Source of the DNA: Squalus acanthias
Lineage: Eukaryota
Length of the DNA: 64,000 nt
Assembly: GCA_030390025.1 (NCBI GenBank)
Contig: CM059437.1
Coordinates: 4,092,001 to 4,156,000 of the forward strand
Direction: 5' to 3'
Position numbers and translations under genes: made by a program. Positions 7,009-61,000 of the stretch are shown here, piece by piece (within the stretch, counting starts at the first letter, position 1; the number at the start of each line of letters is the position of its first letter). The notes beneath the pieces were generated by a model. The model worked only from the letters and a program-made list of their open reading frames with translations. It ran no database searches and was not told the origin of the DNA.

Positions 7009-7435
7009 ATGAAGAGAGGTGGGAGGAGGGTCGTGTGGAGCATACACACCGGCATAGACCAGTGGGGCCGAGTAGCCTGTTTTACATATTAGTATTTATT
7101 GCACAGAAACAGGCCATTCGGCCCAACAGGTCTATGCCGGTGTTTATGCTCCACTCGAGCCTCCTCCCACCCTACTTCATCCAACCCCATCAACATATCC
7201 TTCTATTCCTTTCTCCCTCATGTGTTTATCCAGCTTCCTCTTAAAAGCATCTATGCTATTCGCCTCAACTACTCCCTGTGGTAGCGAGTTCCACATTCCA
7301 ACCACTCTCTGGGTAAAGAAGTTTCTCCTGAATTCCCTATTGGATCTATTAATGACTGTCTTCTATTTATGGCCCCTAGTTCTGATCTCCCCCACAAGTG
7401 GAAACATGTTTTTGTGTTGTAACGTTCTATGTAAT
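7009..7435 (+). mobile_element. Short CR1 3' end, split in two (7009-7083 and 7407-7435) by a nested insertion
   Basis: Both pieces match the 3' UTR and tail of the copy at 935-1306 and join across a duplicated TGTTTT. Confidence 0.75.
7084..7406 (-). mobile_element. 5'-truncated CR1-type LINE, same family as 935-1306
   Basis: Reverse complement is highly similar to 974-1280; the antisense ORFs 7220-7489 (+) and 928-1161 (-) are near identical (ASTTP.GSEFH..TTLWVKKFLLNSLL). Confidence 0.9.
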
Positions 7436-14375: not shown

Positions 14376-15168
14376 CTGAAAAACATAAAAGGGAAAACAA
14401 TTAGATGGACCCTACATGAGCAAACGCCCCCACACCCCGCCCCAACCACCATTAACCAACAACTTCAGCACTTAACTGTCCCGGAACTTGATAGAAGCAA
14501 AAGATAAAATAGAGCACAAGGCTTTTAGGCTGAATCCAACTCATCTTATTGAAGGACGGGACTCTTAAAACAGAACATTAACTCTTAATTAAGCCACTAC
14601 AACGCAAATGCGAAACACTCGCTCCCCCCTCGTTGGGTTTTATCTAATAAATGTTGGGCCCAACTTCTTTTGTGAAGTGCACTAAACCAACTCACTGTGA
14701 AACACACATCTTAAAATTGGTAACTTATACACAGAGATCAAGTTTCGCCGAGTGGAGAAACACGCCTGTGCACTTCACATTTAAACCTGCAGACCCGCTT
14801 TCCACACCGACCTGTCTGTCATTTTCAGGTCAGTTTCATAAATTCAGAATCAACCGGCCGCTTAGCTCTTATTTACTGAAATTGATTCCGGGAGGGGGGA
14901 GGGGCGTCAGCAAATGGGTTACTGCAAAACCATTCGAATACTGTAGCTCTTAATTTGCGAAGTTCAAACAGAGGGCAAAGTATTTTTTTTTTAATTTACT
15001 TTAGACGTTTTCAGAAGCCAATGAATGTTAACGTCAATTATATTTTACAATTTGTAATAATTAAATTGTGAAAGTTAGGAAGTGCTTGAATTGGATTTCC
15101 GCCACTTCCTTGGCTCACTTACAGGTAAGGTAAGGATTAGGGTTAGGGTTAGAGCTGCTCATACTAAC

Positions 15169-19600: not shown

Positions 19601-22600
19601 ATGCCGTCTTAAGGGGGCACTGATGGCTGAGGTACCACATGATGTCCCATCTGCCCTACTCAATAAGCGATAAGGATGCCATGGCTCTAATCACAGAGCA
19701 GAGTTAAGCATTGTGCTGTGACCCCCTTAAAAATTCCTCTTCTGTACCCTGTTCCCCCCCCCCCCCCCCCCAGGCTCCAATCTAAACCAGATGTGAAATC
19801 CCATTGGGTTATCTTGTTGAAAGATCTCGAATACAATAATCCAAGAAATCAGAAACATTTTAATGGAAAAAAACTAGACGAAGGGTCAAACCCGGTATGT
19901 AGGACAAGCTTGAAAATATTAAGATAGATAATGAATGAAGATGAGATAACTGAAGAAGAAGAAGAAGAAGTAGTTAGGTGACATCAAGCCAGTAGATTAT
20001 AAGAGGAAGGAAGGCCGAGAGAAAAAGAGCACTGAGGTCCTGGTAGAGAATGGGTTAAAGAGCCGACGAGATTGTCTGTTAGGGTAATAGCGAAAAGGGC
20101 ACTGTTAAAGTTGGTTTCTTGTCTAAAATCTGTTGTAATGCATTATTTTCAGGCAAAAGCTTCGGGCACTTCAGTTGCTATAGTGACGTGTGTGCTAGCG
20201 GTGTGTGTCCATGTTGGAATGTCTGATTGCATATGTGCACAAATACACTTATGGTAGTTAGTACTTCCCCCTCTATATAATGGGAAGTGAAGCGATGTGA
20301 AAAAAAAAGAAATGGAACATTTCAAAAACGAGAAACCATGCGGTGTGTTGCAGGCTGTAATGTTTCAGCCACCATCAATGGACGGCTCAATATGGAGAAG
20401 CAATAGGAGTCCTTCACTCTGGCGCATGATTTGTAGATTTCTGTGTAACCAACAGGCCGCCTCTTTAAAGCACTATTCACTGTATCCCAAGGCTTTTAAA
20501 GGTCTAATTTAGAGACTAGTAATATACAAATCCAGTACCTGGCATTTGTCATTCTGACTCATGTAATCGTTTTATTATTGACATTTAGTGTTTAATTGTT
20601 AAATTTATTATAGAATTTGTTTTTTAAAATAATATTTAAGTTTTATTTCAGCTATCTGTTTATTGACTTCCCAGTTTCCAAGCCAATCAGAGTGCATGGA
20701 GAAATATGTCTGAACGATTGATTTTAAATTTATGAAATTGATCAGAAATTGACAAGTAGGAGGAGAAAAAAGGGATACACTATGTCTTTAAGGAAGGTCG
20801 GATTGAGTGGTTAGTTCCCATTTATTAAGGCTGTTCTGTGGGCGTAGAATTGATTTGTAATTGTCACTGGCGTGTTCCCTGGACGTGGAGCAAGTTTTAC
20901 TGGTCATTATGCTATGTAAAGAGGCGCTCGTTAGAGATTTGTATTGATAACACGTCAAGCTTTGCACACGTAAGTTGAAGGAGTTTCTACTCAATTAAAC
21001 TGTCATGCATTTATACTGGAATAAAGAAGAGCACATAACTCCATGGCAAGACTAAATCCAAGAATTTCCTGGAGTCCCCGCGCTCAGACTGTATTAAACA
21101 CGTGAACAGAATTCCTCTGTACAAGGGAGCCAATTCTGCCATCTGCTCTTAGAATCTCTTAATAGCCATGGAGCTTTCTCTCTGTTCACATGTTTCTATC
21201 TGTCCTTCTCATTGTGTCTGTCTCTGCCTTTTTCTGTTTCTCTCCATCTCTTAGTATATTTCTCTATCTCTATGTGTCACTCTGTATGTCTTGGCCTCAA
21301 ACTTCTCTTTCGCTTTTGGGTCCTTCTCTGGCTATTTAAAAAAATTGCTTATTCGTACGTTTATTTATTCTTCCTCCCTGTCTCTGCATCTTTTTTCTGT
21401 CTGTTTTTCACTGTGCCTCAGCACTCTTCCATTTGGATGCTGAAAACCCGAAGCGTGCTATTGTTATAGAAACACCACAAACGCTGCCTTGCCTCTAGTG
21501 ATCAGGCGAGAATGTTTCCTTGTGTGATTTGTATTTTTTGAAAACCCATTGCGCACTAACAGGTTAACTGCAGCCTGTAATATAAGTAGCGTTGGACGGG
21601 AGGCAGAGAGTTATTCAAATAGGAACAGCGTCTAAAATACGAAAGATGAAGCAAAGATCGATAAACGAAAAGAATAATTGAAGGAACACGAGACAAAGAG
21701 GGGGGGGGGAGCAGTGAAAAGTTAAGACATGAGGGAGTGTAAAAGAGAATTCGATTGCGTAAGTGCTTCAAAGTATCTTAAGAAGCATAATTAGAAAGAA
21801 AAACTTGAGATTTTAAAATGCAATGGAACAAAGACAGCAAAAAACCGGTGCAGATGAAAATATTGTAGAATAAATCAGTAAATAGTGAGAGTGTTTTCTG
21901 CCTGGTACACACACGGCGCCATTTTGAAGGGACAAGGCGGACCCGGTGATCCTGGGCTGAGCAGAATTTCCCAAGGCACGGCCAAATTTCTGCCTTTGCT
22001 TGGGGAACACCCGTGACTAGGCAAATGCGTAATATGATTTATATTTTGTGTCACTGCGATTGATTTCTCGAGATGACCCCCCCCCTCATTCATAAAGCAG
22101 CTTGATGTATGAGTTTAAGTTTAAAAAAATTACATCTTGTAAATAAAGCTCCCCTGGCAGGGCGTGGGGTGGGGGGAGGGGGGGGGGAGGAAAGTAGAGC
22201 ACAATTGCAAATTAAAAAATGAACTGATGATCGATGTTGTTAGTTATTTTCTGGCGAAGATTTCCCACTCAGGCTCGGACAATGTTTCTCCTGTCTTAAC
22301 CTACGTTTTGGCCTCTGTTAGTGCCTCAGCACCTCCTCTTGCTTTTATTTCCTAATTTCTTTTATCCTTTTTCCTGGTTCTCCAAAGTTTACGTTTTAAT
22401 TTCCTCGCGGTCTCAGCCTCTCTCGCCATTCATTTTTCGCCATACTGTTATATATCAAAGAGAGAGAGAGAGAACTTGGCAATTACACCAATACATACAA
22501 TCCCGGGGCATTGTAAACAACACATTGCACCAACTAAACAAGGTTAAATTTCAGGAGACCCTTACAGAATGAGATATTTATTATCTTTTAAAAGTGCCCT

Positions 22601-32130: not shown

Positions 32131-32545
32131 CTGTGCTGGGACAGTTGTTATTTTTTTGCTTGGAGTTTTGCCGTGACTCTTTCATCCATGGGAATATCTG
32201 CTTGGTGAGGCTGGGTGTGGAGGTGTGGGAAGACTTGGGCAGAGTCTTGCTGGTGCCTGGCTGTGTCGAGTTGCTGCTGGGGTTTTGGGGAGGTGAGACA
32301 GGTGGAGGTTGGCGGTGCTCGGGGAGGTTCGAACGCATGCAGCTCCCATTGATGTCTTTAGATTTGGGATGCGGAGCACTGGTGCCAGCTGGCTGAAGGG
32401 AACAGGCCGACCTCTGGTAATCACTTTCAACGTGAGAAGATGGTGGATAGGGTTCCTGCGCCACTTCATAGCTGAAACCATTTGCTCCCTGGTATGTGTA
32501 TCCACCGAATAGAGTACAGTTGTCGTAGTATGTCGTTTTTTGCAT
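32131..32545 (-). CDS. hoxb3: HoxB3 first coding exon
   Basis: MQKTTYYDN start and [18 protein letters not shown] hexapeptide region; donor ACAG|GTACAC in phase 1. The exon probably begins at acceptor CTTCTAACCTTAG|G at 32661. Confidence 0.93.
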
Positions 32546-35500
32546 CTCGCAGTTTCCCAATATTTATTTCACAAACTGTCAGGGTCCTGACACCCTTATC
32601 GAATAACATTGGCACCCCGATTCACGTGACGTTTTCTTCCAATAGCCTCCTGGCAGTTGACCTAAGGTTAGAAGAACCACAGAATAATAGTGGAACGGGT
32701 GTGGATCCATCTTACACATTCAAAAGCAAATGACATGAATAGCTTTCACCAAACAGGCAGCGCAGATGCCATGGCTGATCCTGATTCCTGGCTATTTGGG
32801 ACTGTCGAGGACGAGAAGGGGGGGAAAAACCCACTCTCGCTTTGAGCTCTGGTCGAAAACGTCAAATTTATATAACCATCTGCAAAACTATTTTAATAGA
32901 GATCAGATTCGGCATTAGCTCACAGCTAAATTCTTTTGGTTTAGGCAATGTTCCAAAAATGATAATTATTTATGAAAAAACTTCAGACAAACTCGGGTTT
33001 GCTATCTCACAGGCAGTTTCATAAACTTTCACAATCAGCCCAGTTAAAATACACCCCAAAAAATTTCGTTCCATTTGATTTTATTGCCCCTTGCTTGATT
33101 AAGTGCCATGCTGTCAATATTCTAGATTAAAAATCTGACCTACCGCCTAAAATTAGGTTTACATTTATTGATATGAAACGGAGCTGCCAAAGTCTCAACA
33201 TTTAAACGTACAGCGAACATGGCGGGATGAGATTTCCCCTGAAAACATCTGGTTTAAATAGAAGGAAACTTATGGATGTTTCAGTAGCCATGTATTCAAA
33301 CTCTAATCTGAAACACACTTTTATAGGCACCATAATTTCTTGCTTAACGCGGCAATCTAAAATTCACATCTCTCTTTACTGCTAAAAGGCAGCCCTGATA
33401 ATGTCGGCGAAAATCGCAGAAAAATCACACAAATTATGCAGGGCTAAGAAACAATCAAAACGACCATTATATACACAGGAATCAGACACTCTTAACCATT
33501 TGATTTAAGTTTGGTTACATGGCATTCTGAATATATATATGCATATGTATTTAACGTGGCCTTTTAGAATGTATTACTTTGTCAAGGCGAAGGTGAAGAA
33601 GTAAGTGCTTTTGTTTCTGCCTTTCTCTGCCCATGTTTAAACTGGATACTGTTTTTGGACGGCTCATGCTTAGCCTTGCGGCGATATTTTTGGACCCTTT
33701 TCCTCTTCCCCGCCACAGCTTTAACTATCCATGATGGATCGACAAAGTATTTCAAACCTGAAAAACAGGGGTTTGTGTTCTCTATGACCAGCATTTGAAC
33801 CTTTCTCTTAACCAAGAAACAAAACGGATAATAGGTACTGTCTTGGAAGGTGCTCTATAGTTTGATGTATGAGGGGGTCAGCCGACCAATAAAGATTTTT
33901 TTTTGTGTTTAAAAAAAATCGGGCCAAGGACTCCCGGAGCGGCTCAAACGCAAAGAGTGAACGGCGAGACGGCCCCGGCACAATCCCGACACTCCTAAAA
34001 TATGCAGGGTTTTCATTTCTGCTCCACACTCGCACCGCATTTTAAAATTTCTGTTTTAAGTACAGTTTCAGTTTGATGCACCTTCTTTTAAAAAAAATGA
34101 TCCGAAGCAATTGCCAGAATTATAAACCGCACAGCAGAAACTCGGCGAGAAACGTTCGAGAACCGCCGAGTTCTTTCTAAAACTTGCACGTATTTCCAAT
34201 TTTTATATAATATATATATTACTCGTCATTTCGAAATGTTAATTTTGGTGTCTGGTGCTGATTAATGATATTGTAAAACAAAATTATTAGATTAAATGCA
34301 AACACCTCACAATGCGAATGCCTGTCTATGTCGCAAGCAATACTTCTCTCCCGTGTTAAATAGGATTTAATATTTATAAAGAGACTAATGTTTTTTTACA
34401 GTTTAATTCAGCGAAGGATTCACTGTCAGACGATACGGCGTTGGAAATATATTAAAGATCTGTCTTTCTGAAAGAGAGAATTAAAATGTGTTCACAAAAT
34501 CGATTTTTGCTTCATGGAATGTTTATTATGGTACAGGCTCTCACACTTTGCGCTAAAATTATATTTAATTTATTCAGAGTAAACCAGCCAAGTAAAAGGT
34601 TGAAAATTGTATTAAAAATATCAAAACAAAGCATTCATTCAAATCAATGCACATTTCTGGGAAAGGAAAACGGAATGGAGTTCTAAAAAATATATATAAC
34701 GCCGTAATTTACGGGCTCCGTGCTTCGAAATACATACTTTAAAAATGGTAACATCGAATTTTATAATTCTGTAGTTTACAGCTCTGCTCATGTGTACTTC
34801 GCGGGGTTACAGGCGGTAGTCGGATAATAGCTTTGTTCTGTAAGGCAGGGCCAGAGTTCCTTATTATTTACAATCAGAAGATAAAATACACACTGAAATT
34901 TCAGGCTTTTCATTCAAGGCCGGGCCAGAGCAATACCATTTTCTCCCTTTGCCACAGAGAGAAAACGTTGCAAAGTTTTATTTACCAATACACACACACA
35001 CAAAATGATAAATTCTAATAAAATGACCCGTCTTCAGCTGGGTGCCACGGCTGCACTTAAGGAAGCTCTAGTCACTAACGGAGCTGAAGCGTGCCACTAA
35101 AACTAGAATTTTACAGCAAAATACATGGACGTTTCTATTTCAAGTGGTGCTTTGAGAAACATTGAACAAAGCCAGAAAAGTCAGGCGCGCTCCAGTCGCC
35201 GTTTGCCACCATGTTTCGGAGAAACACAGAGGCTTGAGGAGTAATGTGCTAAGATTTCTCTCTCCATAATCCGGACACACGGTACCTGCAGCCCCCAAGT
35301 CCTCGCAGTGCTATGTAAGCGAAGGGGCCATTTGATTGCCCAAAATGTGTAAAATATACAGAAAAGAACCATCCTAGCTAATGGGACAACAATAGGGGAA
35401 GTCGTCATACACCTTAAATTATAGAGCACCGTAAGACGCCCACGTAAATATGTCTCAAATCACAACTGAGAGCTTGGTTTTGAAAAATACTCCAAATTAG

Positions 35501-35687: not shown

Positions 35688-35881
35688 CTTAGCCACTGAC
35701 GATAGAAGCAGAGCCAGACATAATATTTCAGATTCACCACGCAATCGATAAGCAGGAGTTCCCAAATTCTTTTTTATACATATATAAAAAAAAAGGAAGG
35801 ATAAAACAGCTGGTTATGGCGCTGAAATTCACTCGTTGAAGGCAACGGCAAAGAAAGGCGAGATGGTACAGCTTCAAAGAA
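35688..35881 (-). other. Predicted non-coding HoxB3 5' UTR exon
   Basis: Acceptor GCTTTCTACAG|T at 35881 and strong donor AAG|GTAAGC at 35688; HoxB3 is known to have several 5' leader exons. Inference only. Confidence 0.45.
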
Positions 35882-38800
35882 CTGTAGAAAGCTCAAGGCT
35901 TGAATGGACAGCCCTGATATTATTGAGCCCTAGACTGGTACGCCCTGCTCACAGATAACAATGGTTTCTCAGCTCTACAGGGCAGAGTGAACTAGAAAGA
36001 AAACCCATATATTCGGTATGTTTGTTATGAATCTATATATAGATATATACACAAAATATTAAAAGCACGGTTTTAAGGGGAAAAATACGATTTCTTTCTT
36101 GAATGCTGGGCAGGCAACGAGTGTTAATCCCCTCGAAACACAGCGTCACAAGTGAAAAATTATGCTAATTAGCGACGTGGTGGACAAGGCCTAGACTGGG
36201 ATGCCAAGCTCGCTATTTGCTTCACGTGTTTGGCAATTATGTGTCAGTTTATGCTAATATATTTTTCCGGCGAAGTGAAACCTTTCGCCAGCCAAAATAT
36301 TATTAATGCAAGATATAATAATAATCATAAAAAAGTGAACTTCACATTACACAACTCCGCGAAGAAATGCATTTCCCTCTATCCGCATTGTTTACTTAAC
36401 TCGTGGTCCGAATCATTAATTAATAATTTATTCATGACCCCAAAAAAAAACTTTTGTGCCAGACTGGGTGCGGTAGAAAGAAAAGAAAATGGACGCAGCG
36501 AAGGGGAGGAAGGAGGAGGAGGGGATAATTCTGTTGTATTTAACATAGAGCAACGCACTAGATGCAACAACCTCTCTCTAAACTTTTAATGTGGGTTGTG
36601 TGTTGCACTTGCTTGGACACTTATGGTGATTTTTAAAAAATTAAAATAAAAAAAATGCTCTCCCGACAATGGAGAGAGAATTGTCACATGAGTGAAAGCC
36701 AATGGAAAAAGAATTTGGAACTTAAGCTCTTTTTTATGCATGCCACTGCTTCTGTCGTTTATGGCCGCGTAAGATTTATGACTTCATGGCACCATAGCTG
36801 TAAACAGTGTAAAAGGGATAGATGTTGCACTAGTTAGGTACATGAAAGGAGAGCCTGTACGGCGTAGGAGGAAGACGGGCGAAAGAATCTACAACTCTGC
36901 AACTTTTTAACGCCTTCATACTATTCTTTTATTTTTTTTGCAAACTATGTCTTTTTTGGGGTTTGTTAAAGAAGCAATTCAGAGGTCCGAGGCCCTCGTC
37001 AATGCTTCTTTTCTGTTCGGAATAAGTGAGAGGAAAGGTTGATTTTTTTTAACGTGCAGTGATTTTTCTACAACACACTGCTCAGCTGCCAAAGGTATAA
37101 CTTCACAAAGTGAGACTCGGATTCTGGCCGTCTAAGAAACAAGTTCCTCCCGCTTAGAAGCAGGACAGGCTAAAGAATGTCAGACAGTATCGTATGTTAT
37201 TTTTTCCATCGCGAGGTGGCTGAGTATATAACTTTGCAACTTTGCAACTTGTATAACTGGACGACTGCTCACTTTTTCCTGCACCTATTGTTTTGCCTGT
37301 AAACTCCTTCCGCGACTGGGGGAAGATTCAGTTTCACTTCGGTGATCTCAACAATGAACTTTTTTTCTTACATCTGCTTCTAGATGGAAACCATATTTTG
37401 AAAATAGAGGTTTTAATTTGATCTTTTATGTGGTGGTAAGATTTTTTTAATGTACCAAGAAAATGCTAATACAATTGCAAAATGTTTCTGTATTGTGCTT
37501 GTAGAACAAGTGATTCCAGATCGTTGCCAACAAAATATCTGATTTTAATCTAACTCGGACCTTAACAAAAAAAAACTTTGGCAATTGAAAACTTTGCATG
37601 CGATATTAAGGCGTTATGTAGCATAGTATACACCTCTGTATAATGTATGTCTGTTTATCTAACGATAGCTTTATCTTTCCATCTATCTATCTATCTATTA
37701 ATAAACAGGACACTGAACTGTGGGAAATGGTTCAGGTGTTAAATAAATATAGTCTGACTTACCGCAATAATGCTGCTAGTTCCCGATCCAAGGTGTAGCT
37801 GCTGATGGGGTCTTTATAAAAAGCGAAGACTGCAAAAAGGAAAGAAAAAAGACAAACCTTCGATCAAGGAAATCGTTACAAAATCGAATTCGTTGCACAC
37901 GACCTCTGAGGAAATCGACAGAGTATTCGAGCAAATGACAGAAAGAAGCAACAAAAAGTGGAGCGTCAGGAATTAGGAATACAATATGCATTATTAATAA
38001 TATATTAGAAATGGGCATCGTAATGTGCTCAAATATAAACATTAAGTGTAAATACTTTTAACTTATATGTTGGTCTGCTCACCCAACCAGAATCTTGACA
38101 TTATTAACTTAAGTAAAATGCTGTGTATATTTTTGAAATTGCTCATGTATTTGTGCTTAATCATTAAATAAAGTTGTATTTCATACATGTTTGTGGTTTT
38201 CTTTCTCAAAGTGGTTGATAAATTAAATGTATATTTACCACCCTACACTTCACGGAGGGCACTTAATTGCCTGGTTTTAGTGTTTCCTAACTAATGGTAG
38301 TCTATCTTTAGTTAAAACATACAACATTTAGCCAGTTTTATTTAATATTTGGATCAAATAGGCTTGTGGTTAAATGCCGGGCCTGCAACAAACATCATAT
38401 ATTAAAAGTATACGTCATTTTAAAGCGTTTCAAATTTCCAATGTGTCTTTATTTGTTATTTTATTTTGAGCAGTAATACAAAATTCGAATGACGACATTG
38501 AATGATTTGAAAATTGGATTCATATTATAAAATCAATTGTTTCATTATATCCCAGCCCTCCTGTATAAAAAAACTAAAGTAGGGCCGCTGATGTCTTTAA
38601 TAGTGAAAATAATAACATTCTTTTGTGTATGGCTTCTGTTATTGGTCTGGAGTAAAAAATTCGTTACATTTTGCCCCAAAAGGCAACAATTTCGGAAAGA
38701 TTCCGCGCACCAGGCTTTGTGACCTCCCAGTGTAAAAATGATTTGTTTCATCCAAAAGCGGCAACAGTTACGCGTGTTGAATCTGTAGCTTCGTTTACTA

Positions 38801-41800: not shown

Positions 41801-42519
41801 AAGGTGGCGCACGCTTTACCAGTGATAGTAAGTCACTCTGCTGTAGGCTAAAATAATTGTTATATTCTCCGCAGTAGTAAAACAGAAATCACCTTCAGAT
41901 GGAATAAAAGTGGAGATGAAACAATTCTAGAAAGTTAAAAGAGACACATTTTCTCTCTCAATTTTTCAATTAAAAGGCAAAGAGATTGAGTTGAAGAACT
42001 TTAAGGCCGGCCAACACTCGAGGGGATTTTAGTTCGGGAACTTAAAAAGTCGCGAGTACAATAGGTAAACACTGTTTACCCAGGTCATAAATCATGTGCA
42101 CATTCATCTGGAGGATAACACTCTATATAAAAATGCGTTTGAAGCTTCTTCCACGAACTCGGAGGTGTCAACAGCCATCAAAGGTAGACCCAAACCAAAC
42201 GTTTAACTGTTTGTAAGATCTTTCGGAAGTTTGAGGAGGAAAAGAGTTTTCTGAAGTATTCTTCACCACCTTCTGCAAAAAAGAGCACTTTGGGGGGGGG
42301 GGGGGGGGGTTGGGGGGTTGGTGCGAGAGGCCACGTCTGTCTCAATCCGTTACACACAAAAAAGTCAGCAATAGTTCACGGAAACCAACCGGGGACCTCT
42401 CTCTCAGGTCAAGCTATGGGCCATTAATTATATCCACCCTGGAATTCATGGCGAGCTGCAGAGGAGGGGGGTGGGGGGGGGGGGGAATGTTTAAGCTGCA
42501 GTTTCCGTGGTTCGCTTAC

Positions 42520-42716
42520 CTGTTGGATCATTGCAATGGAACTTGGAAAAAGATCACTGAATTTGCTATTTCATCACAGGTGGTGGAGCTCAGCTCTACC
42601 CCCCTCCCCCCACCCCACCCCCACGGGAGGAAAAATGTTTATTGGACCCTGGTGGATTTTTTAAAAATGCATTCTGGAAAATCTCGAGAGTGTCATCGAA
42701 AGAAGCATGGGCTCGC
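42520..42716 (-). other. Predicted HoxB3 leader exon (internal)
   Basis: Acceptor TTCATTCCTGTCAG|G at 42716 and donor CAG|GTAAGC at 42520; contains one arm of the long-range inverted repeat. Confidence 0.5.
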
Positions 42717-45700
42717 CTGACAGGAATGAATTCAACCAGCAGCAGTACTGGGAAGTTATATACAGCCGTTACACAACTAGGCCTCTGCCTGAACGGACTA
42801 TCAGGAAAAACGCGAGCAGTTTGATTATTTCAGAAGCTTAATTCTGTATATGTTGTTCAAAAAGAACCCCAACAAAAACAATGTGTTATTACAAATCCAA
42901 CATGATTTAAAGATTGCCAGTGGAGGCCAAACGACTACGCCAGAATGTTAAATGGAACACAAAATAACGATGTGAGTTAACGTGTCCAATAGGAGCTGGC
43001 CTGGTCGATGGATGTTGGAAATGACTGCCATATGAGCTCAGGGTTGGCAGAGCGACAGTAGCAGGGCTCCTGCCTTTAAATACCGACCACGCTAATTAAA
43101 TATGCTGTGATATATAACAGCGGACGAGAGTGAATAAAAGAGATATAGAAAGAGAGAGAGAATGGGAGAGAGACATACAGAGAGGAAGATACAGAGGAGA
43201 AAGCAACAGCGAGAGAGAGTTAAATAGAGGCAATGTTAGTTCCTGAGCACAATGATACAGTCGCACTATATCAATTTCCTAACAATGTCAATGTGATTTA
43301 AAAAATGATTACAGTCATTACTTTCAAGCAAATAAACCTCAAACCTCTATGGAGTGCGAACAGGGCACCACCTTATCCTATTTTTGTTCTTGCAATTGCA
43401 ACAATTTCGGACAATTGCTCCTTAGAGACCGACCGCATTTCAACACAAAGGAATGGGAAAAACATGGAAAATTTGGCACCAGAAATACTAGCTTCTCGGC
43501 GATCTGAAGCCTTCATTGAAAAAAAACCCAATAATAACAATCAAAAATCATCATCACTATTAAAACAGAACTATATACCATTGGAGCCTTCAAGTGAATT
43601 GCGCCTCAAAATTAGTTTCGTTTTGTATTATCAGTGAAAGGTCAGAGGTTAGAGTTATTGCATTTTCACTTTTCTAATAGCCAGTCTGGGAGCAGGGAGC
43701 AGCAGCAATATAATTTATTACCTTGTCTTTACTGGAGCTAATTTGATCGTTTGTTGAGAGGCGTTGAAACGCCATGAGTTGCAAAGTCAGGAACACTACA
43801 TACCTACTACAGTGCTGATCGTTCAATTATATATTATTTTCTTTGTGCATTTATATTGAACATGTAAACTCACATTAACCGCGATTTTACTTATCTGGGC
43901 TATCTTTGTCAATGTTTACAAATTTTAATTTACAAAAGATTACCAACGAAATATGGCCTGTTTGTAGCATTGTATTTGTGATCTTATCGTGTGTATTTGA
44001 TCCATTCTGAACATTAATTTTCCATTAAATGCTTTTTACAATCTTGCCCTTCTATGTATGAACAAATTATGTATTATTACGCCATCGGGTCCATTTTTAA
44101 AGGGCTATTTGTTTATACATTGTAGCGGTGTATACTTTTTTGTGGTTCTTATCACCGTTCAAATATTAGGAAATATAAATGTGATTTGACCCTCGCCCAC
44201 TCTTCTGCACGGTGCCCAGATATGTTATGGTAGAGTTCTCAAGGAAAAAAAGGTCGTAATTTTTCATCAATTTGAAATAGCCATGCACGGCCCAGCAAAA
44301 TATATTAACAGGGAGAAGGGACATGATTTATTATGAGGAGTATAATTACCTGTACATTAAATAGCCATCTTATGAGAGCAACGGTTACTCTCGAGTGTAC
44401 GTAGGGTTGGTTCCTTGCAACCCGTAATGCATTATCATCCCGTTAAAAGGATTTTATTTAAAGTATATCTGCCCAGTTTGAAGGATATCAACGCCAATGA
44501 ACGATGTAAATAAGGGAGAGAGCAAAGCAATTCTGAAATGAAACACCACAAATAAATCTTAGACTCGTTCACAAGTTAATTCTGTCAGCTGATGGACCGA
44601 GAGAGCGAGAGAAATATTACGGTGAAAAGAGTCCAGAAATCACAAAACTTGAGCAATTTTCCTTCGTGTTTGCATAATGTTGTTGCTCTTTCATGTAGTG
44701 GAATGTGATCTGTAGGAGAGAAAAATTAGTAGATAATTTGATATACATTTCAACATGAACTGAAAGGAATAATATACAAAATATTGTTCAATACAACGGC
44801 GCGGTTTCGTTCAGTAGTACGGTGTCATCAGCGTCTTCCCAGTTTTAAAATATATTAACCCCAGTCTTTATGTTTTGCTTTCTATAGAAGTCAGTGAACC
44901 GCTCGTTAAAGAGAGGCGAAGGAACAAAGCCTTTAGGAGGGGCTTTTCGCTGAGTGAATCGGCAAGGCATTGTCAGGGTTGTTTTTAAAGCACAGTTACC
45001 GTATTTAAAGAAGGGGCTGTAAATTCTACGGATAGAACAAACAGCCTTTAAGCCTTAACATTTTCAGAATATAAGAGCGTATTTCGCCTTTCCGTGGCAT
45101 AAATTATTTCTGAAAAAAATTACATATTGCTATCAGCGCCTCTGAACGAACGCAATGCTACTGAGAATGATTCATGTGTGTTGAGGGCATCGAGTCACAT
45201 TATTTTTCCATTTTGGTGCTGGGAGTTATCAATTAATAAAGCCTCAATTGAATCCAGGGTCAGACTTGCAAAGAAATTTACACATCTTTGCTATGGAAGC
45301 TAAGCAATATCCAATTGTGTTCTAATATCGATTTGCTACTGCCTTCCCCCTTTCTCTTTTCTCAGGAGCCTTTTTTTTGGCAAATGAAGAAAATCGACAT
45401 CCCGAAGGCCTGTCAATCATAGAGCAACTCTGAGTTTTCATTGTTTTTTTTCTCATTTACAAGCACATAACTACTATTCAGTGAGTGAGGGAAACAGATT
45501 ATGTAGCACAATTTGTTAAAAGGAAATATAGACTTTGTCATTCCGTTCAATGACTGTCTAGCTTTACTTAATGTAACATATATATAATATATATATATGA
45601 CTACATGCAATATATATATATATATCAAATAGCGAAGGACAAAGGCAGGTACAGAATAGTTATAATATAAAATAACAAACTCTCAATTTGTTCAATGTAC

Positions 45701-48700
45701 TTGTGGTTAGTTCTCAAATAATATTGCCTGCCATTGACTTCTGCATCTTGTACATTAAACAATGAAATGGTTAATAAGCATTTGAGTTTTTCCATCTTTG
45801 TTGAGCTAACAGACACAAGATACCATTGATAACTTCAACGAAGCCCTGTGTAATTATCAAAACAAACACTTAAAAACACTTCAGATAATCATAATTAAAA
45901 ACGACCATTAAATATCCCTCAATAAGCAAAAGACTGCCATTCAGTTGACAGGTAATGGTATTTTCAGAGACACGCGTGTTTCAATACTGATGTTCCTTGC
46001 CTGCTGCAACCATTAATATTTAATGCCAATCACTGAGTTATTCTAATTTTACTACATAAAGGTTTGCACTAACGATCGGTGTTAAATGTTACGCTGCTAT
46101 TAATGGCTTCAACTTGACTGGCTGGCGTCCAACCGCAGAATAAAAGGAACGAGGCGTTGTGGAAGTCTGTTAGTCCTCGCTCATTTTCAAAATTGGGTTT
46201 TGCAATTCATTTCTGGTCACCCAAAGCGCCTCCTTTACTAGGTTTTTATTCCAATGAGGCGTTGTGTTTTAAAGAATTCATACAAAACTATCCATAATTG
46301 GTAATCACGGATGCTGTAATTTAAGACCCCCAGCTATAGCTTTCATATTATCCTCTGATCTATTGCTACAAATGGCCCGCAATAATCAACTCTGGGGAGA
46401 GGATTACAACCTTCCTCATTCCTGAATATCATCACTTGCACATCATTCTCAAAGAGCATGATTTATCACGCAGACGAACATAAACAACACACAACTTACA
46501 CACAATGGTATCCATAGTGCAGCTGACATATTTCGCAATAAATCAAGAAAGCAAGAAGAAAAAAAACATTCCCACAAAAAAATATCGATGAAAATGGGGA
46601 AATAAACAAACATACCACCGTGGTAAATTGAAAAATAGAAGGAAAGGCACTATTTGTCAAATGTTATGACAGTCTTGTAAAACATAAATAACACACATAA
46701 TATTTACATAGAGAGACACGAGGCACTGCAGCTGTACTTACAATAATCCAGCCCACGGTGTGTCTCTCTTCCCAAATTGTTTTATTCCAGCCTCTCTCTC
46801 AAGTTATAGGCTTGTTTTTAAAAGGACAGTAGAATTTCACGTCAGACACAGTGAGACCATGTCGGCGATTTACCGGCGAATACATATCTATTCAGCAACA
46901 GCTGCATTAATTATTTAATGAGTCACGTGATCGAGGGGGAAGGGGGGATTTCAAATTCATACTCCAAGGAGAAGTGTGACCTTCCACTGGGAGAGCGGAG
47001 ACATTCTTTCATATTCTTCTTCATTCCCCATTTTTTGGGGGGGTTCTCAAAATTGTATTCATATCTTGCTCGCGATTCTGCTTAAAAAGTGGGGTTCAGA
47101 TGATTTCCTATAAGTCGAGAACTTAATAGAAGTGTGACTATCTCAATGCATTCAGGGCTTTCCTAAGTCTCATCCTTTGAATCCTGAAACGCTTCTTCAG
47201 ACTCACAACCTACGTGTCTATCTTTTGTGGTGCCGAGGCAGTCTATACGATTGGAACTAGAAGCTCGTTGCCACAGTAGTAGATTTCTGCTTGATTCATT
47301 TCACCACAAGTTTGCTTGTTCCTTATGTTGAATTGCCAAGTTTTATATTGTCCATTTTGCCCTTCATCTCATTTTCTGTCGCACGGTTGGTTTTGTATTA
47401 CTGTGGAGCGACTATTTTTTAACAAGGTCCCTTTTCACTTACACGCGGGCACTTTTGCTCCTCCAGTTGCAAAGCTAGTAATCAGTCGCTACCAGCAACA
47501 TAAAGGTCACGGAAAAAATCTCGAGCAGTTAGCAGAATAATAAGACTTTTTAAAAAGTCCAATCCAAAAATGTTTGCATTTGTGACATAAAGCGATTCGG
47601 ATCAACTCTGTGTTAAGGGACAGAAAATCGCTGTTATGGTCAAGGAGATGTATATAGGGGTGGGGGGAAACCTCGTTACGTTTGTTCTGGTAACAGCAAT
47701 GTTTTGAAAAAAGCAATAATCTGAGCAAGGAACATGCCCCGAGAAACAATTTGACACAGTGCTGTCTAACTTCGTCGTGTTTCGATATTCTCTCTGCGGG
47801 TGCTTCCTACAGTGCAATGTAAATTGCGGTAGGTGTATTGACAATAGCACTAGAGATTATTTCGTTACAATTTTTTTTTAAAAATCCATCCTAAGTAGTC
47901 CATAATATTACCTGGAACTCGGCCTTTGTTCTCGCCAGAAAACACCACCGATTTCAGAAATTTATAATAATATAATTTAATAATATCCTTATCCATCTCA
48001 TCCGTCATATTTATTGCTTTCGAAAATGATGTTAGAAAAATAGAGGCGCTTAAAAAAAAAGAAAATAAACTATGTTTGGTTATAAAAGCCACCCAAATAA
48101 TTTGAAAAAGAAAACGATTGCGGGGCGGGGACTTCTCATCTAACAAAGGCAATTTTTTTCGTTTATTTGTTTTTAATGCACATTTCGAAGATTTCTCTAA
48201 ACTGCATGGTGAATTATTGCATTCACGAGTGTTTCTATTGCCCAGAGAAGCACAATGGGTGCCTTCATAAATTAGAGCTGGAGAATTTAGTAAAGGTGCG
48301 GGAACTGCGCCACAGTTTCACGCACTCTTAAAAGAACTTGTATTTCACGGTAATTGCTTCTAAAATCGTAAAAAAAAGTGATATCTATTTTATACTCTTA
48401 GACAAGGAAGACACGGAGTAGCAATAAGGTTACAACTGGGGTGTCCGTGTACATTTTGCAATTTGACTTTGGTAATAATAAGCTAGTGTAAAAAGCCCAA
48501 CACATTGTACACACGGAATTTCTCTCTCTATCCCTCCCTCCTTCTCTCTCTTACCCGCTCCTCACTGCCCGTAAACAAACCGCATTTAAAGATAGAAAAA
48601 TCAGGATGGAATCCTATTCTTATAATGAATACACTAAAAAAAAGTTTGAATAAAATTGCAAGGCCAGTCAATATTGAATGTTACTGAATCTTCTATAGAG

Positions 48701-49111
48701 AAAAGACAGATAGGCTGAGAGCAAAGTAATGGTCCATTTTTCTTCTCATTAGGTGGATTTTTGGAGGCCATCCTTAGATGTGATTGCAAAGTGCAAGATA
48801 TACCTAAACTTCATTCCACAACCTACTCTTACCTATCACTAAATATTAAAAAAGAGGGATTTCAACACAAACATTCACGATTGTCTATCTTTTCTAATGG
48901 AAGGGATTGCACACAAGACAAGCCTAACAGAACAGACACTCTTCAGCAACGCTGCACAGATTTTAAATGGAGTGAACGAGGGGTAACCCTGGTGGGGTTT
49001 TTTTATCCTTTAGTATTGAGAATGTTCAGATAGAACAGAGTCATGTCTTAAAGGTCAAGGGTTTCAGAGGTCAGACTGCTAGTATAAAAACAGCTAATCG
49101 GATAGAAAAGT

Positions 49112-49128
49112 TGTCCTTTCCGTGAACC
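49112..49128 (-). promoter_or_regulatory. HoxB4 3' DR5 RARE (early neural enhancer position)
   Basis: GGTTCA-cggaa-AGGACA 2.8 kb 3' of the HoxB4 stop; RGTTCA-N5-AGGACA is the group-4 3' RARE type. Confidence 0.75.
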
Positions 49129-49368
49129 CTTTCGGCCGTCCCGCTGACCAACCAACGCGCTGATTTTATTCCGTAAGATTCATATATGTTTAAAAAAAAA
49201 CACCACAGAAAGGTAAAGAACAAAAAACACAAACTATAAGCAAATTCTCCAGTCGATGAATTGACTGCGTATTCCAGGCTGCAGACAGCGAGTATGTGTT
49301 CACATTTAATTGTTAAAAGAACAACAAAGCGATTCAAAGTGACGAAATTAATTGACTTTGTTTGTTAC

Positions 49369-49535
49369 CTTTCGTTTCACCGTTTTCCGTTTTCCAGATC
49401 TGAACATTTTCACGATTTTTAATCATGTTTGAGAGGGAATCTTTCGATGTGACTGAGAAATTCCACGCTCTGCCCATATTTTTAAAGAACCCTCCAGGAC
49501 GCGCACCACTTTTCCCCGGGACGAGCCATCCAGAT
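49369..49535 (-). other. Predicted first exon from the distal HoxB3 promoter (5' end approximate)
   Basis: TATA-like CTTTAAATA at ~49562-49570 next to CR3; donor AAG|GTAACA at 49369. In mouse the distal Hoxb3 promoter lies next to CR3. Confidence 0.45.
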
Positions 49536-49559
49536 TTGCTGTTGAGCAACAATGGGAGA

Positions 49560-58065: not shown

Positions 58066-61000
58066 ATAATGCACAAATAAGTTATGTAAGACATCCACAT
58101 AAGCCAATCATTGCAAAATTCCCTTAAAATCGATTAGTTTAAATTTTATCCATGGTAATTTAAATGCATAACTGTGGTCTTTGTAAAAAAAAATAAAAAA
58201 ATGTATGCAGCAGACATAGTGATTTCATGCTTAAATTATTAGAAAATGCACTTGTTTCAATGTGGAAGCAATAGAAAATAGAAAGAAAAGTGACTTCAAG
58301 AGTAGGCCGCCCCGAGTTCCCCCCTCGTTGTCCATAAATGTGTGTTTGGAAATACTTTTAGAAGTTTGCTACACAAATTCCTCATTCAAACATTCAAAAT
58401 TTAAGAGCCTATATATTTACTTTGAACAGATTTATTGCAGAGTAACTATAGTGTAAACAGATTTAAAACATGTTCGGTGCGCAGAACGACCCCAAACACA
58501 CTACCTCGCAGACAGATTTAAATAGCTTACTTTGTTTAAATGATCGGACTAGGGCCCAAGGCTTGTAGATTTTTTGTGCAACTTTTTAAAAATTGTGCAT
58601 TGGCGTGAGATAGGAAGCAGAAACACGCGTATTAATGATAATTAAAGGAGGCTGACATCGAGTTCATTTGACATTTGATTTGAGACCTATGGGAAGAAGC
58701 TAGATCAAGCTTATTCTTTTTTCCTTTTGTAAAATTTGATCGAAATTCTCCGAATCTTCATGGATGGTCGCAAAGAGATAAACTTTATCCTGGGAATCTA
58801 TAAACGGGTAACTGGGGGGGAGGGGGGGGGGGCCTAAAGCAAGTACATGGGCGAAATGAAATAACTTAACCTATTCCCTGTTTGAGAATATGCAATATAA
58901 TTCTAGGGTCTCGCGTTCCGCCCTTTAATGACTTTAATGCCTTATATGATACTTGAAATCTAGCATTTCCTCAATCAAGTGGAAAACTCTGTCTCTACTT
59001 TAATTTGATTTCCTGGCTCTATCTTTCCCCATTTCTACCTATACATGCCAAGACTATATATGTTTGAAAACGTCGCGAATGTGCATATGTTCCTATTTTA
59101 TGTGTCATTTTCACATTAAGTTGTGTAATTTATACTTGACTCGGCTCATCTTGTGTCCTTTTGCCCTGATATAACAACAGACATTTACTATTCATCCTTT
59201 TCCGTCACGTCACCAATTTTAAATAAATGCTTCTATTTCCATACAACTTGACTCTCAAATGTTTTTGAAAGGAAAGCTGATTACATCTGGCGGGAATTAT
59301 TTGACTCGTCCATTTGTGTTTTCAAAGTCTCTTATAACCTATACCACAACCCCTTCCGCCGTGGATCTGGTGATTTCTATTTATTGTGCAGTGTGTCCTA
59401 TAAAAGAGATCAATTAATCCTCCCTGTTTTTGCACAGATCGTGGTCAGGATAGTTAGATGACCCCCCCCCCCCCCCCCCCCCCCACCACCTCCCCAACCT
59501 CTCTCTGTCTGTCTCTCTCTCTCCCTCGTCTTATTTTACATACTCTGTAGATTGTTGTCCATTGCTAAGCTCGACCTCCACTTCCACATCTTACCTCGGT
59601 ATCATTTTCTCATCTGCGCCGATAGCCAAGATCACCCCTTTTACCATTGACATCGAACTGGGTCTATCTAAGCAGACAACAGCAAGTCACGCACGACGTA
59701 AACTTTTGACCCTCCACTTTTTGACCCCTTAGCTATAATGCTGTACTAACAAGCCCCCATGAACAGTTTCAACATCACAATCCTCAGACAGTATTGCTGT
59801 ACAGTTTTGCTTTTTTCCCCCACGAGGCTCGATTTTATTTTAAACTTAGCGCTGCTTCACTTAATACATATAATTTAGAAATCGAAAGATTTTATTGAGA
59901 CACTGGAATTTCTTGAAAGTTGGGTTTGAACTCTTCAAGAATGTTTTTATTTCTTACCGGCTCTGTTTGAATGAATTTATATCATTATTCGTCAGGAAAA
60001 ATATACAAACTGAAAGGGTGAGTTTTGAAGAGATAAATGACTACAGCACTTAGAAACTGCTGATAGTGCATAAGTAGAACATTTTGGGGAGATATCAAAC
60101 AGACTCCTCCGACTCTGTTCTGCCAGATTAACTGCAATGGAAAGGCTGGTAAGCTTTGTGGCAGAAAGGAGACGCATAATGACTATGAACTTGGTCTGAA
60201 GCGGGCTCTGGTGGCGGATCTGACACGTTGCATGTGTAAAATAGCTCCCCAGATTCTGTTCATATTTGTTTCAATTTCTGCTTTTAAATCCGATTTTTAT
60301 CGCGGCAACATATCACAAGTTATTTGTAGCAAAAGTTTTTCGAAAGCATTGTCAGTTTGTGTATACTGTGCGCTCCGTGTGACGTTAGACTGGCAGCTAT
60401 CGTACCTTGTTTAATAAAATCGGAGTATATTTAATATAAAGAAGCAGGTCATCAGGACAATCCCTCAAGAGATGAAGCATTAACAAGGGTTTTAGATTAT
60501 CTTTGTCATCAGATTGTGTAATATTTCGGAAGCTTAAATGTAATCCAAAATTAAATTAAACTAAATTCAATTCAATTCAATTAAGTTAGGGTATTGGACT
60601 GTAACTGACGGAGAACGAATACTATACAAAACAGTTCTGGATATTTGTAATACTTTTTCAAACTAAACGAATAAGATTTTGTGTTGTGAAATGTCTCGCT
60701 CAATCGCACTGCAAATGTCAGGCATCAACCTATCTATTTTTGTATAAGTAATGGGGGTTAACAAATCTGCACGGCCTGTGTGCCATAAAAACACTAGAGC
60801 CTTTTCTAGAGTAGCAGAATTATTATGTTGCCTGATACCAATTATATTGTGGTTTATAGTTTTTTCTTTCATTTTTCAATTTATTAAGTGAAGGAGATGT
60901 ATCGAAAATAACAGTGCTCTGTAATTTAAGATCTCACCTTCTGCCCGTGTTGCATTTAATTAGACCATGATGTGTATGCTGGTCTCGCTTAGGTCGCGCG

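Follow-up and report, generated by a model that had tools for sequence, protein, structure and literature searches.

A possible long-range RNA duplex between two segments of the HoxB3 leader in Squalus acanthias

Long Hox3 transcripts begin within the domains of more posterior Hox genes and are therefore made where Hox3 protein does not belong; their handling has been little studied. The stretch of Squalus acanthias DNA analysed here (64,000 nucleotides of contig CM059437.1, referred to as the window) carries HoxB1 to HoxB4 and mir-10 on the minus strand, and a preliminary description of it proposed that two HoxB3 leader exons, once spliced together, fold into an RNA stem. Is the complementarity of these segments more than chance, are both of them exons, and what could a duplex between them do to the long HoxB3 RNA?

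Complementary segments in the HoxB3 leader

The reverse complement of the upstream segment aligns colinearly with the downstream one, exactly as had been described, and the two lie 6.74 kb (~6.8 kb) apart on the same strand. A G-tract follows the stem directly; G-runs are common in the window generally.

49440..49520, minus strand: upstream (5') arm of the predicted duplex (alignment and folding)
42621..42703, minus strand: downstream (3') arm of the predicted duplex (alignment and folding)
42599..42622, minus strand: G-tract immediately after the stem, matching a G-quadruplex-type pattern (pattern search)

As minus-strand, Hox-sense RNA the arms form a duplex of -63.0 kcal/mol (core -58.5 kcal/mol) against -55.8 kcal/mol for the plus strand, and the exon-to-exon pairing score is 61 on the sense strand vs. 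46 on the antisense strand. For either arm this is the best duplex energy among about 3,200 windows of minus-strand RNA, the background being -19.9 +/- 6.1 and -30.8 +/- 6.5 kcal/mol for the two arms and their next best separate partners reaching -49.0 and -56.7 kcal/mol. The folded model contains 57 pairs (22 G-C, 31 A-U and 4 G-U), in agreement with the initial estimate of a stem of about 55 bp with a loop of about 84 nt; the spacers of 71 nt to donor 49369 and 13 nt to acceptor 42716, adding up to an 84-nt loop, had also been given correctly. It is true that four of the five transitions between the arms become G-U pairs (the remaining one is C·A), but five transversion mismatches had gone unmentioned and the G-U argument is weak (4/5 on a chosen strand, p=0.19).

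With the arms joined by splicing, folding the entire modelled leader to its energy minimum yields this stem. Its helices have probabilities of 0.97, 0.89, 0.96, 0.44 and 0.45, i.e. 0.89–0.97 for the outer ones and about 0.45 for the inner ones. Compared with shuffled sequences, the trimmed leader has a z-score of only -2.56 (2/200), and the leader including the G-tract one of 0.08. The helix probabilities support the fold proposed for the joined exons, provided that they are spliced together. The duplex gains less in the precursor, where about 39 kcal/mol is spent, before any loop cost, on opening the arms out of their local structure (23.8 and 15.2 of the 58.5 kcal/mol).

The arms had been said not to look like a transposon, and each has indeed a single match in the genome, namely itself, in a search that missed even the partner arm. 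A dispersed repeat was rejected as an origin: further copies were not found at this low sensitivity, and the upstream arm has an ancient HoxA paralogue. In the unspliced region 42.2–49.8 kb, Rfam gave eight weak matches, all far below the gathering score.

Exons and transcripts around the arms

Scanning with the reading frame of the upstream exon using HMMER retrieved one protein, Hox-B3a isoform X3 of Scyliorhinus torazame, which clusters with isoform X2; a further search also retrieved isoform X2 from Chiloscyllium punctatum, and a word-index protein search gave no match at 30–98 residues nor among longer proteins. The RefSeq entries matching this frame are XP_072343638.1, XP_072343637.1 and XP_072417361.1. 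These shark Hox-B3a models bear out the assignment of the locus to the HoxB3 leader, and donor 49369 is used in all three. They place the following exons in the window, all bounded by AG/GT:

59595..59653, minus strand: upstream leader exon, coding part, in which a 138-codon frame starts (17/19 residues identical to XP_072417361.1)
49369..49538, minus strand: internal leader exon of long HoxB3 transcripts, 170 nt (residues common to RefSeq Hox-B3a isoforms)
37763..37829, minus strand: leader exon that follows 49369 in all three annotated models, 67 nt (RefSeq mapping)
35688..35768, minus strand: next leader exon, 81 nt (RefSeq mapping)
32131..32661, minus strand: HoxB3 first coding exon with the AUG at 32545 (mapping from RefSeq models)

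The first of them, which lies 5' of mir-10 and HoxB4, was mapped from the bamboo shark model only. Exon 49538–49369 has the borders CAACAG/CAAA (acceptor) and AAAG/GTAACA (donor); the HoxA paralogue keeps both splice sites, and none of 500 shuffles aligns as well. The upstream arm is hence exonic in the orthologous gene models of two other sharks, and for this arm the proposed minus-strand co-transcription holds through those models.

The downstream arm lies in a predicted exon:

42520..42716, minus strand: predicted cassette exon, 197 nt (splice consensus, same donor in HoxA)

Its borders are CCTGTCAG/GCGA (acceptor) and ACAG/GTAAGC (donor). The donor recurs at the matching place in HoxA, and the alignment of the HoxA and HoxB exon bodies is not above chance (114/500 shuffles). 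In two other, distant organisms the contig alignments cover the downstream arm and stop at 42735/42736, roughly 20 nt inside the predicted intron. That 49369 is normally spliced to 42716, the junction on which the preliminary description relied, is unsupported: all three annotated models go from 49369 to 37829 and skip 42716–42520, so that the second exon can be no more than a cassette. These models are computed and were found through their open frame, so that they form a biased sample, and contigs drop rare forms; an isoform containing the cassette may exist unseen.

Sequencing reads were aligned to 42380–46880, with the upstream exon outside this interval, so that a joint to 49369 would be visible only as a loose end. 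Among the joints and loose ends listed for four runs (14 joints, 24 of 70 loose ends) none falls at 42716, and contigs of all four runs pass this position unspliced. Unspliced contigs are no proof of absence, because run X1 is also unbroken at the antisense splice sites and the list covers 24 of the 70 loose ends. Sixteen matching runs were taken as RNA by guess, none being on record as such; the spliced joints argue for RNA in run X8.

These joints belong to the opposite strand:

42663..45469, plus strand: Hox-antisense transcription unit over the downstream arm (joints, contig breaks, depth steps)

Antisense donors 42972 and 43641 are joined to about 45366 in two joints of X8, with the acceptor at 45364–45365, and the plus strand has GT donors and a pyrimidine-rich AG acceptor at these places. 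Contigs of X8 and X9 break at 45394, 30 nt past the antisense acceptor, and a single X1 contig with a depth of 130 spans 42663–45469. The left end of the unit is uncertain (42.35–42.68 kb). Over the downstream arm the antisense signal prevails; it is abundant and alternatively spliced.

Unspliced, the pairing would loop out an intron that holds two further elements:

49112..49128, minus strand: DR5-like element GGTTCA-n5-AGGACA (motif; also in HoxA and HoxD)
46742..46940, minus strand: conserved element of the looped intron, its 3' end resembling a splice donor (67% identity to HoxA)

The first, which we take to be a retinoic acid response element (RARE), had been announced in the preliminary description and was found at 49128–49112; a strict consensus search missed it. 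The second is likely an alternative Hox3 promoter or first exon, predicted from its sequence, whose transcripts would then lack the upstream arm. The surrounding region 46643–47000 has counterparts in both HoxA and HoxD, and one block of 30 nt does not differ at all between HoxA and HoxB.

Selected pairing, common origin or chance

A long-range duplex of the arms, maintained by selection in the precursor of the long HoxB3 RNA, is plausible and the likeliest of the readings considered, though we put it somewhat below an even chance. Codons of the upstream arm are identical at 24/27 positions in catshark and 22/27 in bamboo shark, those of the rest of the exon at 14/23 and 15/23; the arm is better kept than the loop part in catshark (p=0.023), not significantly so in bamboo shark (p=0.16). 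The downstream arm aligns in runs X9 and X10, and the adjoining intron does not. Taking the simplest single-base change for each amino-acid difference, with the partner arm assumed unchanged and silent changes invisible, five of the seven inferred upstream-arm changes in the two sharks fall on unpaired positions (49506, 49504, 49503, 49474 and 49450), a clustering with p=0.015 or 0.027 depending on the denominator (about 0.015–0.03). One of these five would close a mismatch. The change at 49444, seen in both species, turns A-U into G-U, and that at 49491 breaks a G-C pair unless the partner has changed. On this inferred set of changes, the result speaks against pure chance, yet arms that had arisen long ago by copying, one from the other, would be expected to show it too.

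The arms could indeed be the scar of an inverted copy, left by template switching, or share factor-binding motifs of convergent sense and antisense units, each arm then being conserved separately (through the upstream frame, splice signals or an antisense start), with no function for the pairing. We consider such an origin possible but rather unlikely. Colinearity over about 80 nt, transversions as numerous as transitions and the weak G-U bias fit it, and shared ancestry would put fast-changing sites at mismatches, mimicking the five-of-seven result; moreover, the depth in X1 and X8 drops within the downstream arm, as would be seen where an antisense RNA starts. The HoxA paralogue points the same way in one respect, as the first two blocks of the upstream arm are common to HoxA without a partner there (0/500 shuffles). 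On the other hand, the sense strand pairs better than the antisense strand, the copy adjoins an acceptor consensus that brings it to 84 nt from its partner after one splice, and two of the inferred changes keep or add a pair.

A check on the HoxA3 paralogue, suggested in the preliminary description, turned out negative for the pairing: 27 of 53 mapped pairs are kept there vs. 20–26 for slid controls, and the exon score is 26. The paralogue thus retains the exon layout without the pairing. No HoxD counterpart scored above shuffled sequences in the HoxD3 region of the same genome, and a metagenome scan for Hox3 contigs yielded four short loci, none of which extends to either arm. A local hairpin in the HoxA exon bearing the same GGAAAAGUG block was rejected, not being above chance (z-scores of -0.36, -0.73 and 0.42).

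Chance complementarity of two conserved segments, the best of very many possible pairs, is unlikely, and the outcome depends on what is taken as given. The plain-DNA match has 28.3 bits, with E=0.010 for one arm against the window, and the same bit score corresponds to an E of about 13 in a self-search of the whole window. In a G-U-aware all-against-all scan of 30.0–53.2 kb the arm pair (score 61) comes first on the minus strand; four real plus-strand pairs outscore it, and 5/51 block shuffles of this 23-kb region reach its score. It is joint fifth within 8–64 kb, and the equal-sized control regions around HoxA3 and HoxD3 of the same genome hold two and three stronger minus-strand pairs, respectively, two of those in HoxD being local hairpins. 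When exon is compared with exon, none of 3000 shuffles reaches 61 (maximum 53) and none of 11 other exon pairs of HoxB and HoxA scores above 35. Searching the upstream exon, annotated independently of the pairing, against all 19.4 kb downstream places its best partner exactly at 42703, which 1/600 shuffles equals. Among real 170-nt windows 5/215 have a partner as good, one of them being this pair itself and three having G-run or CT-rich partners. The pair is thus ordinary without a prior and unusual given its exon positions, with a chance probability of about 0.002–0.02 for an independently known exon. Chance gains from the second exon being a predicted one; against it, the partner segment has both splice signals and conservation, and the clustering of changes in relatives at unpaired positions is not what chance predicts.

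Very unlikely, finally, is that the pairing acts on the plus-strand RNA, in an extended antisense transcript carrying both arms, or merely as competition: plus-strand spliced RNA is the strongest signal over the downstream arm and its duplex still has -55.8 kcal/mol (3/500 shuffles), but the X1 depth drops from 130 to roughly 9 past 45.5 kb, with no sign of the RNA reaching 49.4 kb, and the downstream arm is possibly only partly inside it.

Possible consequences for the long HoxB3 mRNA

The leader exons share a frame of 138 codons that runs over five of them on the minus strand (59653–59595, 49538–49369, 37829–37763, 35768–35688 and 32661–32622) and stops 76 nt before the HoxB3 AUG. No stop interrupts it in this genome or in the bamboo shark model (115/138 residues identical), and the part of it present in the catshark model is also open (96/119 identical). 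Pfam reported no family above cut-off for the three shark proteins. In relatives the five-exon frame is annotated as short 'Hox-B3a isoforms' without a homeodomain. We regard it as a candidate conserved long uORF or microprotein, judging from its openness and identity across the models.

The cassette would shorten this frame to 94 codons, with the stop at 42663–42661 inside the stem, and would raise the number of upstream AUGs from 10 to 15. A 54-codon AUG-initiated frame over the predicted junction is not rare (128/1000 shuffles). The HoxA3 paralogue (C4, about 68.8324–68.8380 Mb) has a 55-codon AUG frame, dependent on an acceptor picked by consensus, that starts within 2 nt of the matching place and has the HoxB3 phase where it exits the exon; its peptide is unrelated.

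If the selected duplex forms, it would link leader exon 49538–49369 to the predicted cassette exon 42716–42520 and bring donor 49369 to within 71+13 nt of acceptor 42716, so that, we infer, inclusion of the cassette would be favoured. In the usual annotated route, which skips the cassette, the duplex would exist only until intron removal. With the cassette included, the 57-pair hairpin would stay in the mRNA. Stems of such strength hinder scanning, and the hairpin, the shortened frame and the additional upstream AUGs would together make this isoform a poorer template for HoxB3 protein. The antisense RNA is complementary to the downstream arm throughout and could dislodge the upstream arm, its duplex with the downstream arm being worth -135 vs. 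-58.5 kcal/mol for the two arms. A complete antisense-gated switch, in which the duplex pulls in the cassette, the helix truncates the 138-codon frame and blocks scanning, and an RNA resembling HOXB-AS2, with its start over the downstream arm, opens the duplex by strand displacement, is distinctly improbable. If true, it would explain why transcripts from the Hox4/Hox5 domain yield no ectopic Hox3 protein and would give a concrete sequence mechanism for a Hox antisense RNA; a duplex tying together exon choice, upstream frame and antisense RNA would be a directly testable mechanism. Should the duplex fail, the five-exon shark HoxB3 leader, the open 138-codon frame and the spliced antisense unit remain.

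Several of these elements have known counterparts. PCCRs are complementary segments that lie near splice sites, with less than 10 kb between them, and have been proposed to influence splicing; their variation is often too small for covariation to show (PMC8052449). The HoxB3 arms are likewise stably complementary, part of one pre-mRNA, less than 10 kb apart and near splice sites, and both lie in sequence conserved at the level of sharks. Whereas PCCRs as defined there are intronic with exons excluded, and known cases have helices of 11–20 bp, the HoxB3 arms are exonic or predicted exonic, their 57 pairs are interrupted and the duplex would outlast splicing. Hox leaders dampen translation by uORFs, to which Hoxa11 adds a stable stem-loop (PMC8172242, PMC8892498): translation inhibitory elements have been described for Hoxa3 and Hoxa11 (Alghoul et al. 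2021, PMC8172242) and conserved uORFs for Hox genes (Ivanov et al. 2022, PMC8892498, whose main text mentions Hoxb3 0 times). The shark leader also contains an uORF; the Hoxa3 and Hoxa11 elements are local, whereas the HoxB3 stem depends on two exons separated by 6.8 kb and would alter the length of a five-exon frame. The layout of the shark leader matches the long zebrafish hoxb3a transcript splv2, which has one exon between Hox4 and Hox5 and more leader exons between Hox4 and Hox3 (PMC2148072). The antisense unit resembles human HOXB-AS2, a natural antisense RNA of 3594 nt within HOXB3 that overlaps sense exons (PMC8293171), orthology resting on position only; a 78-nt sense-antisense overlap at Hoxb3 is common to human and mouse (Mainguy et al. 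2007, PMC1831499).

A literature search on long-range RNA base pairing in HOXB3 returned no papers, and no description of this structure was found in the literature covered, which lies outside subscription journals and most supplements; the available parts of bioRxiv 10.1101/400366, PMC8330917, PMC4470032, PMC2868907 and PMC2080641 contain nothing on this element. Long-range pairing near splice sites and inhibitory Hox leaders are known already; the texts available contain no description of an exon-exon duplex as long as this one in a Hox leader.

Other paired or structured elements occur elsewhere in the window. Inverted copies of about 320 nt at 971–1291 and 7090–7410, 3' of HoxB1, are 88% complementary, the second holding a 74-nt hairpin, and look like a mobile element. 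A 40-nt inverted pair surrounds HoxB1 (14817–14856 and 20715–20754, 83% complementary, E=0.005 in the window self-search). The only Rfam matches in the window at large, both outside the arms, are mir-10 and HOTAIRM1_2, the latter at 21897–22140 on the plus strand between HoxB1 and HoxB2 (43.6 bits, E=0.013), i.e. in the HoxB and not the HoxA cluster.
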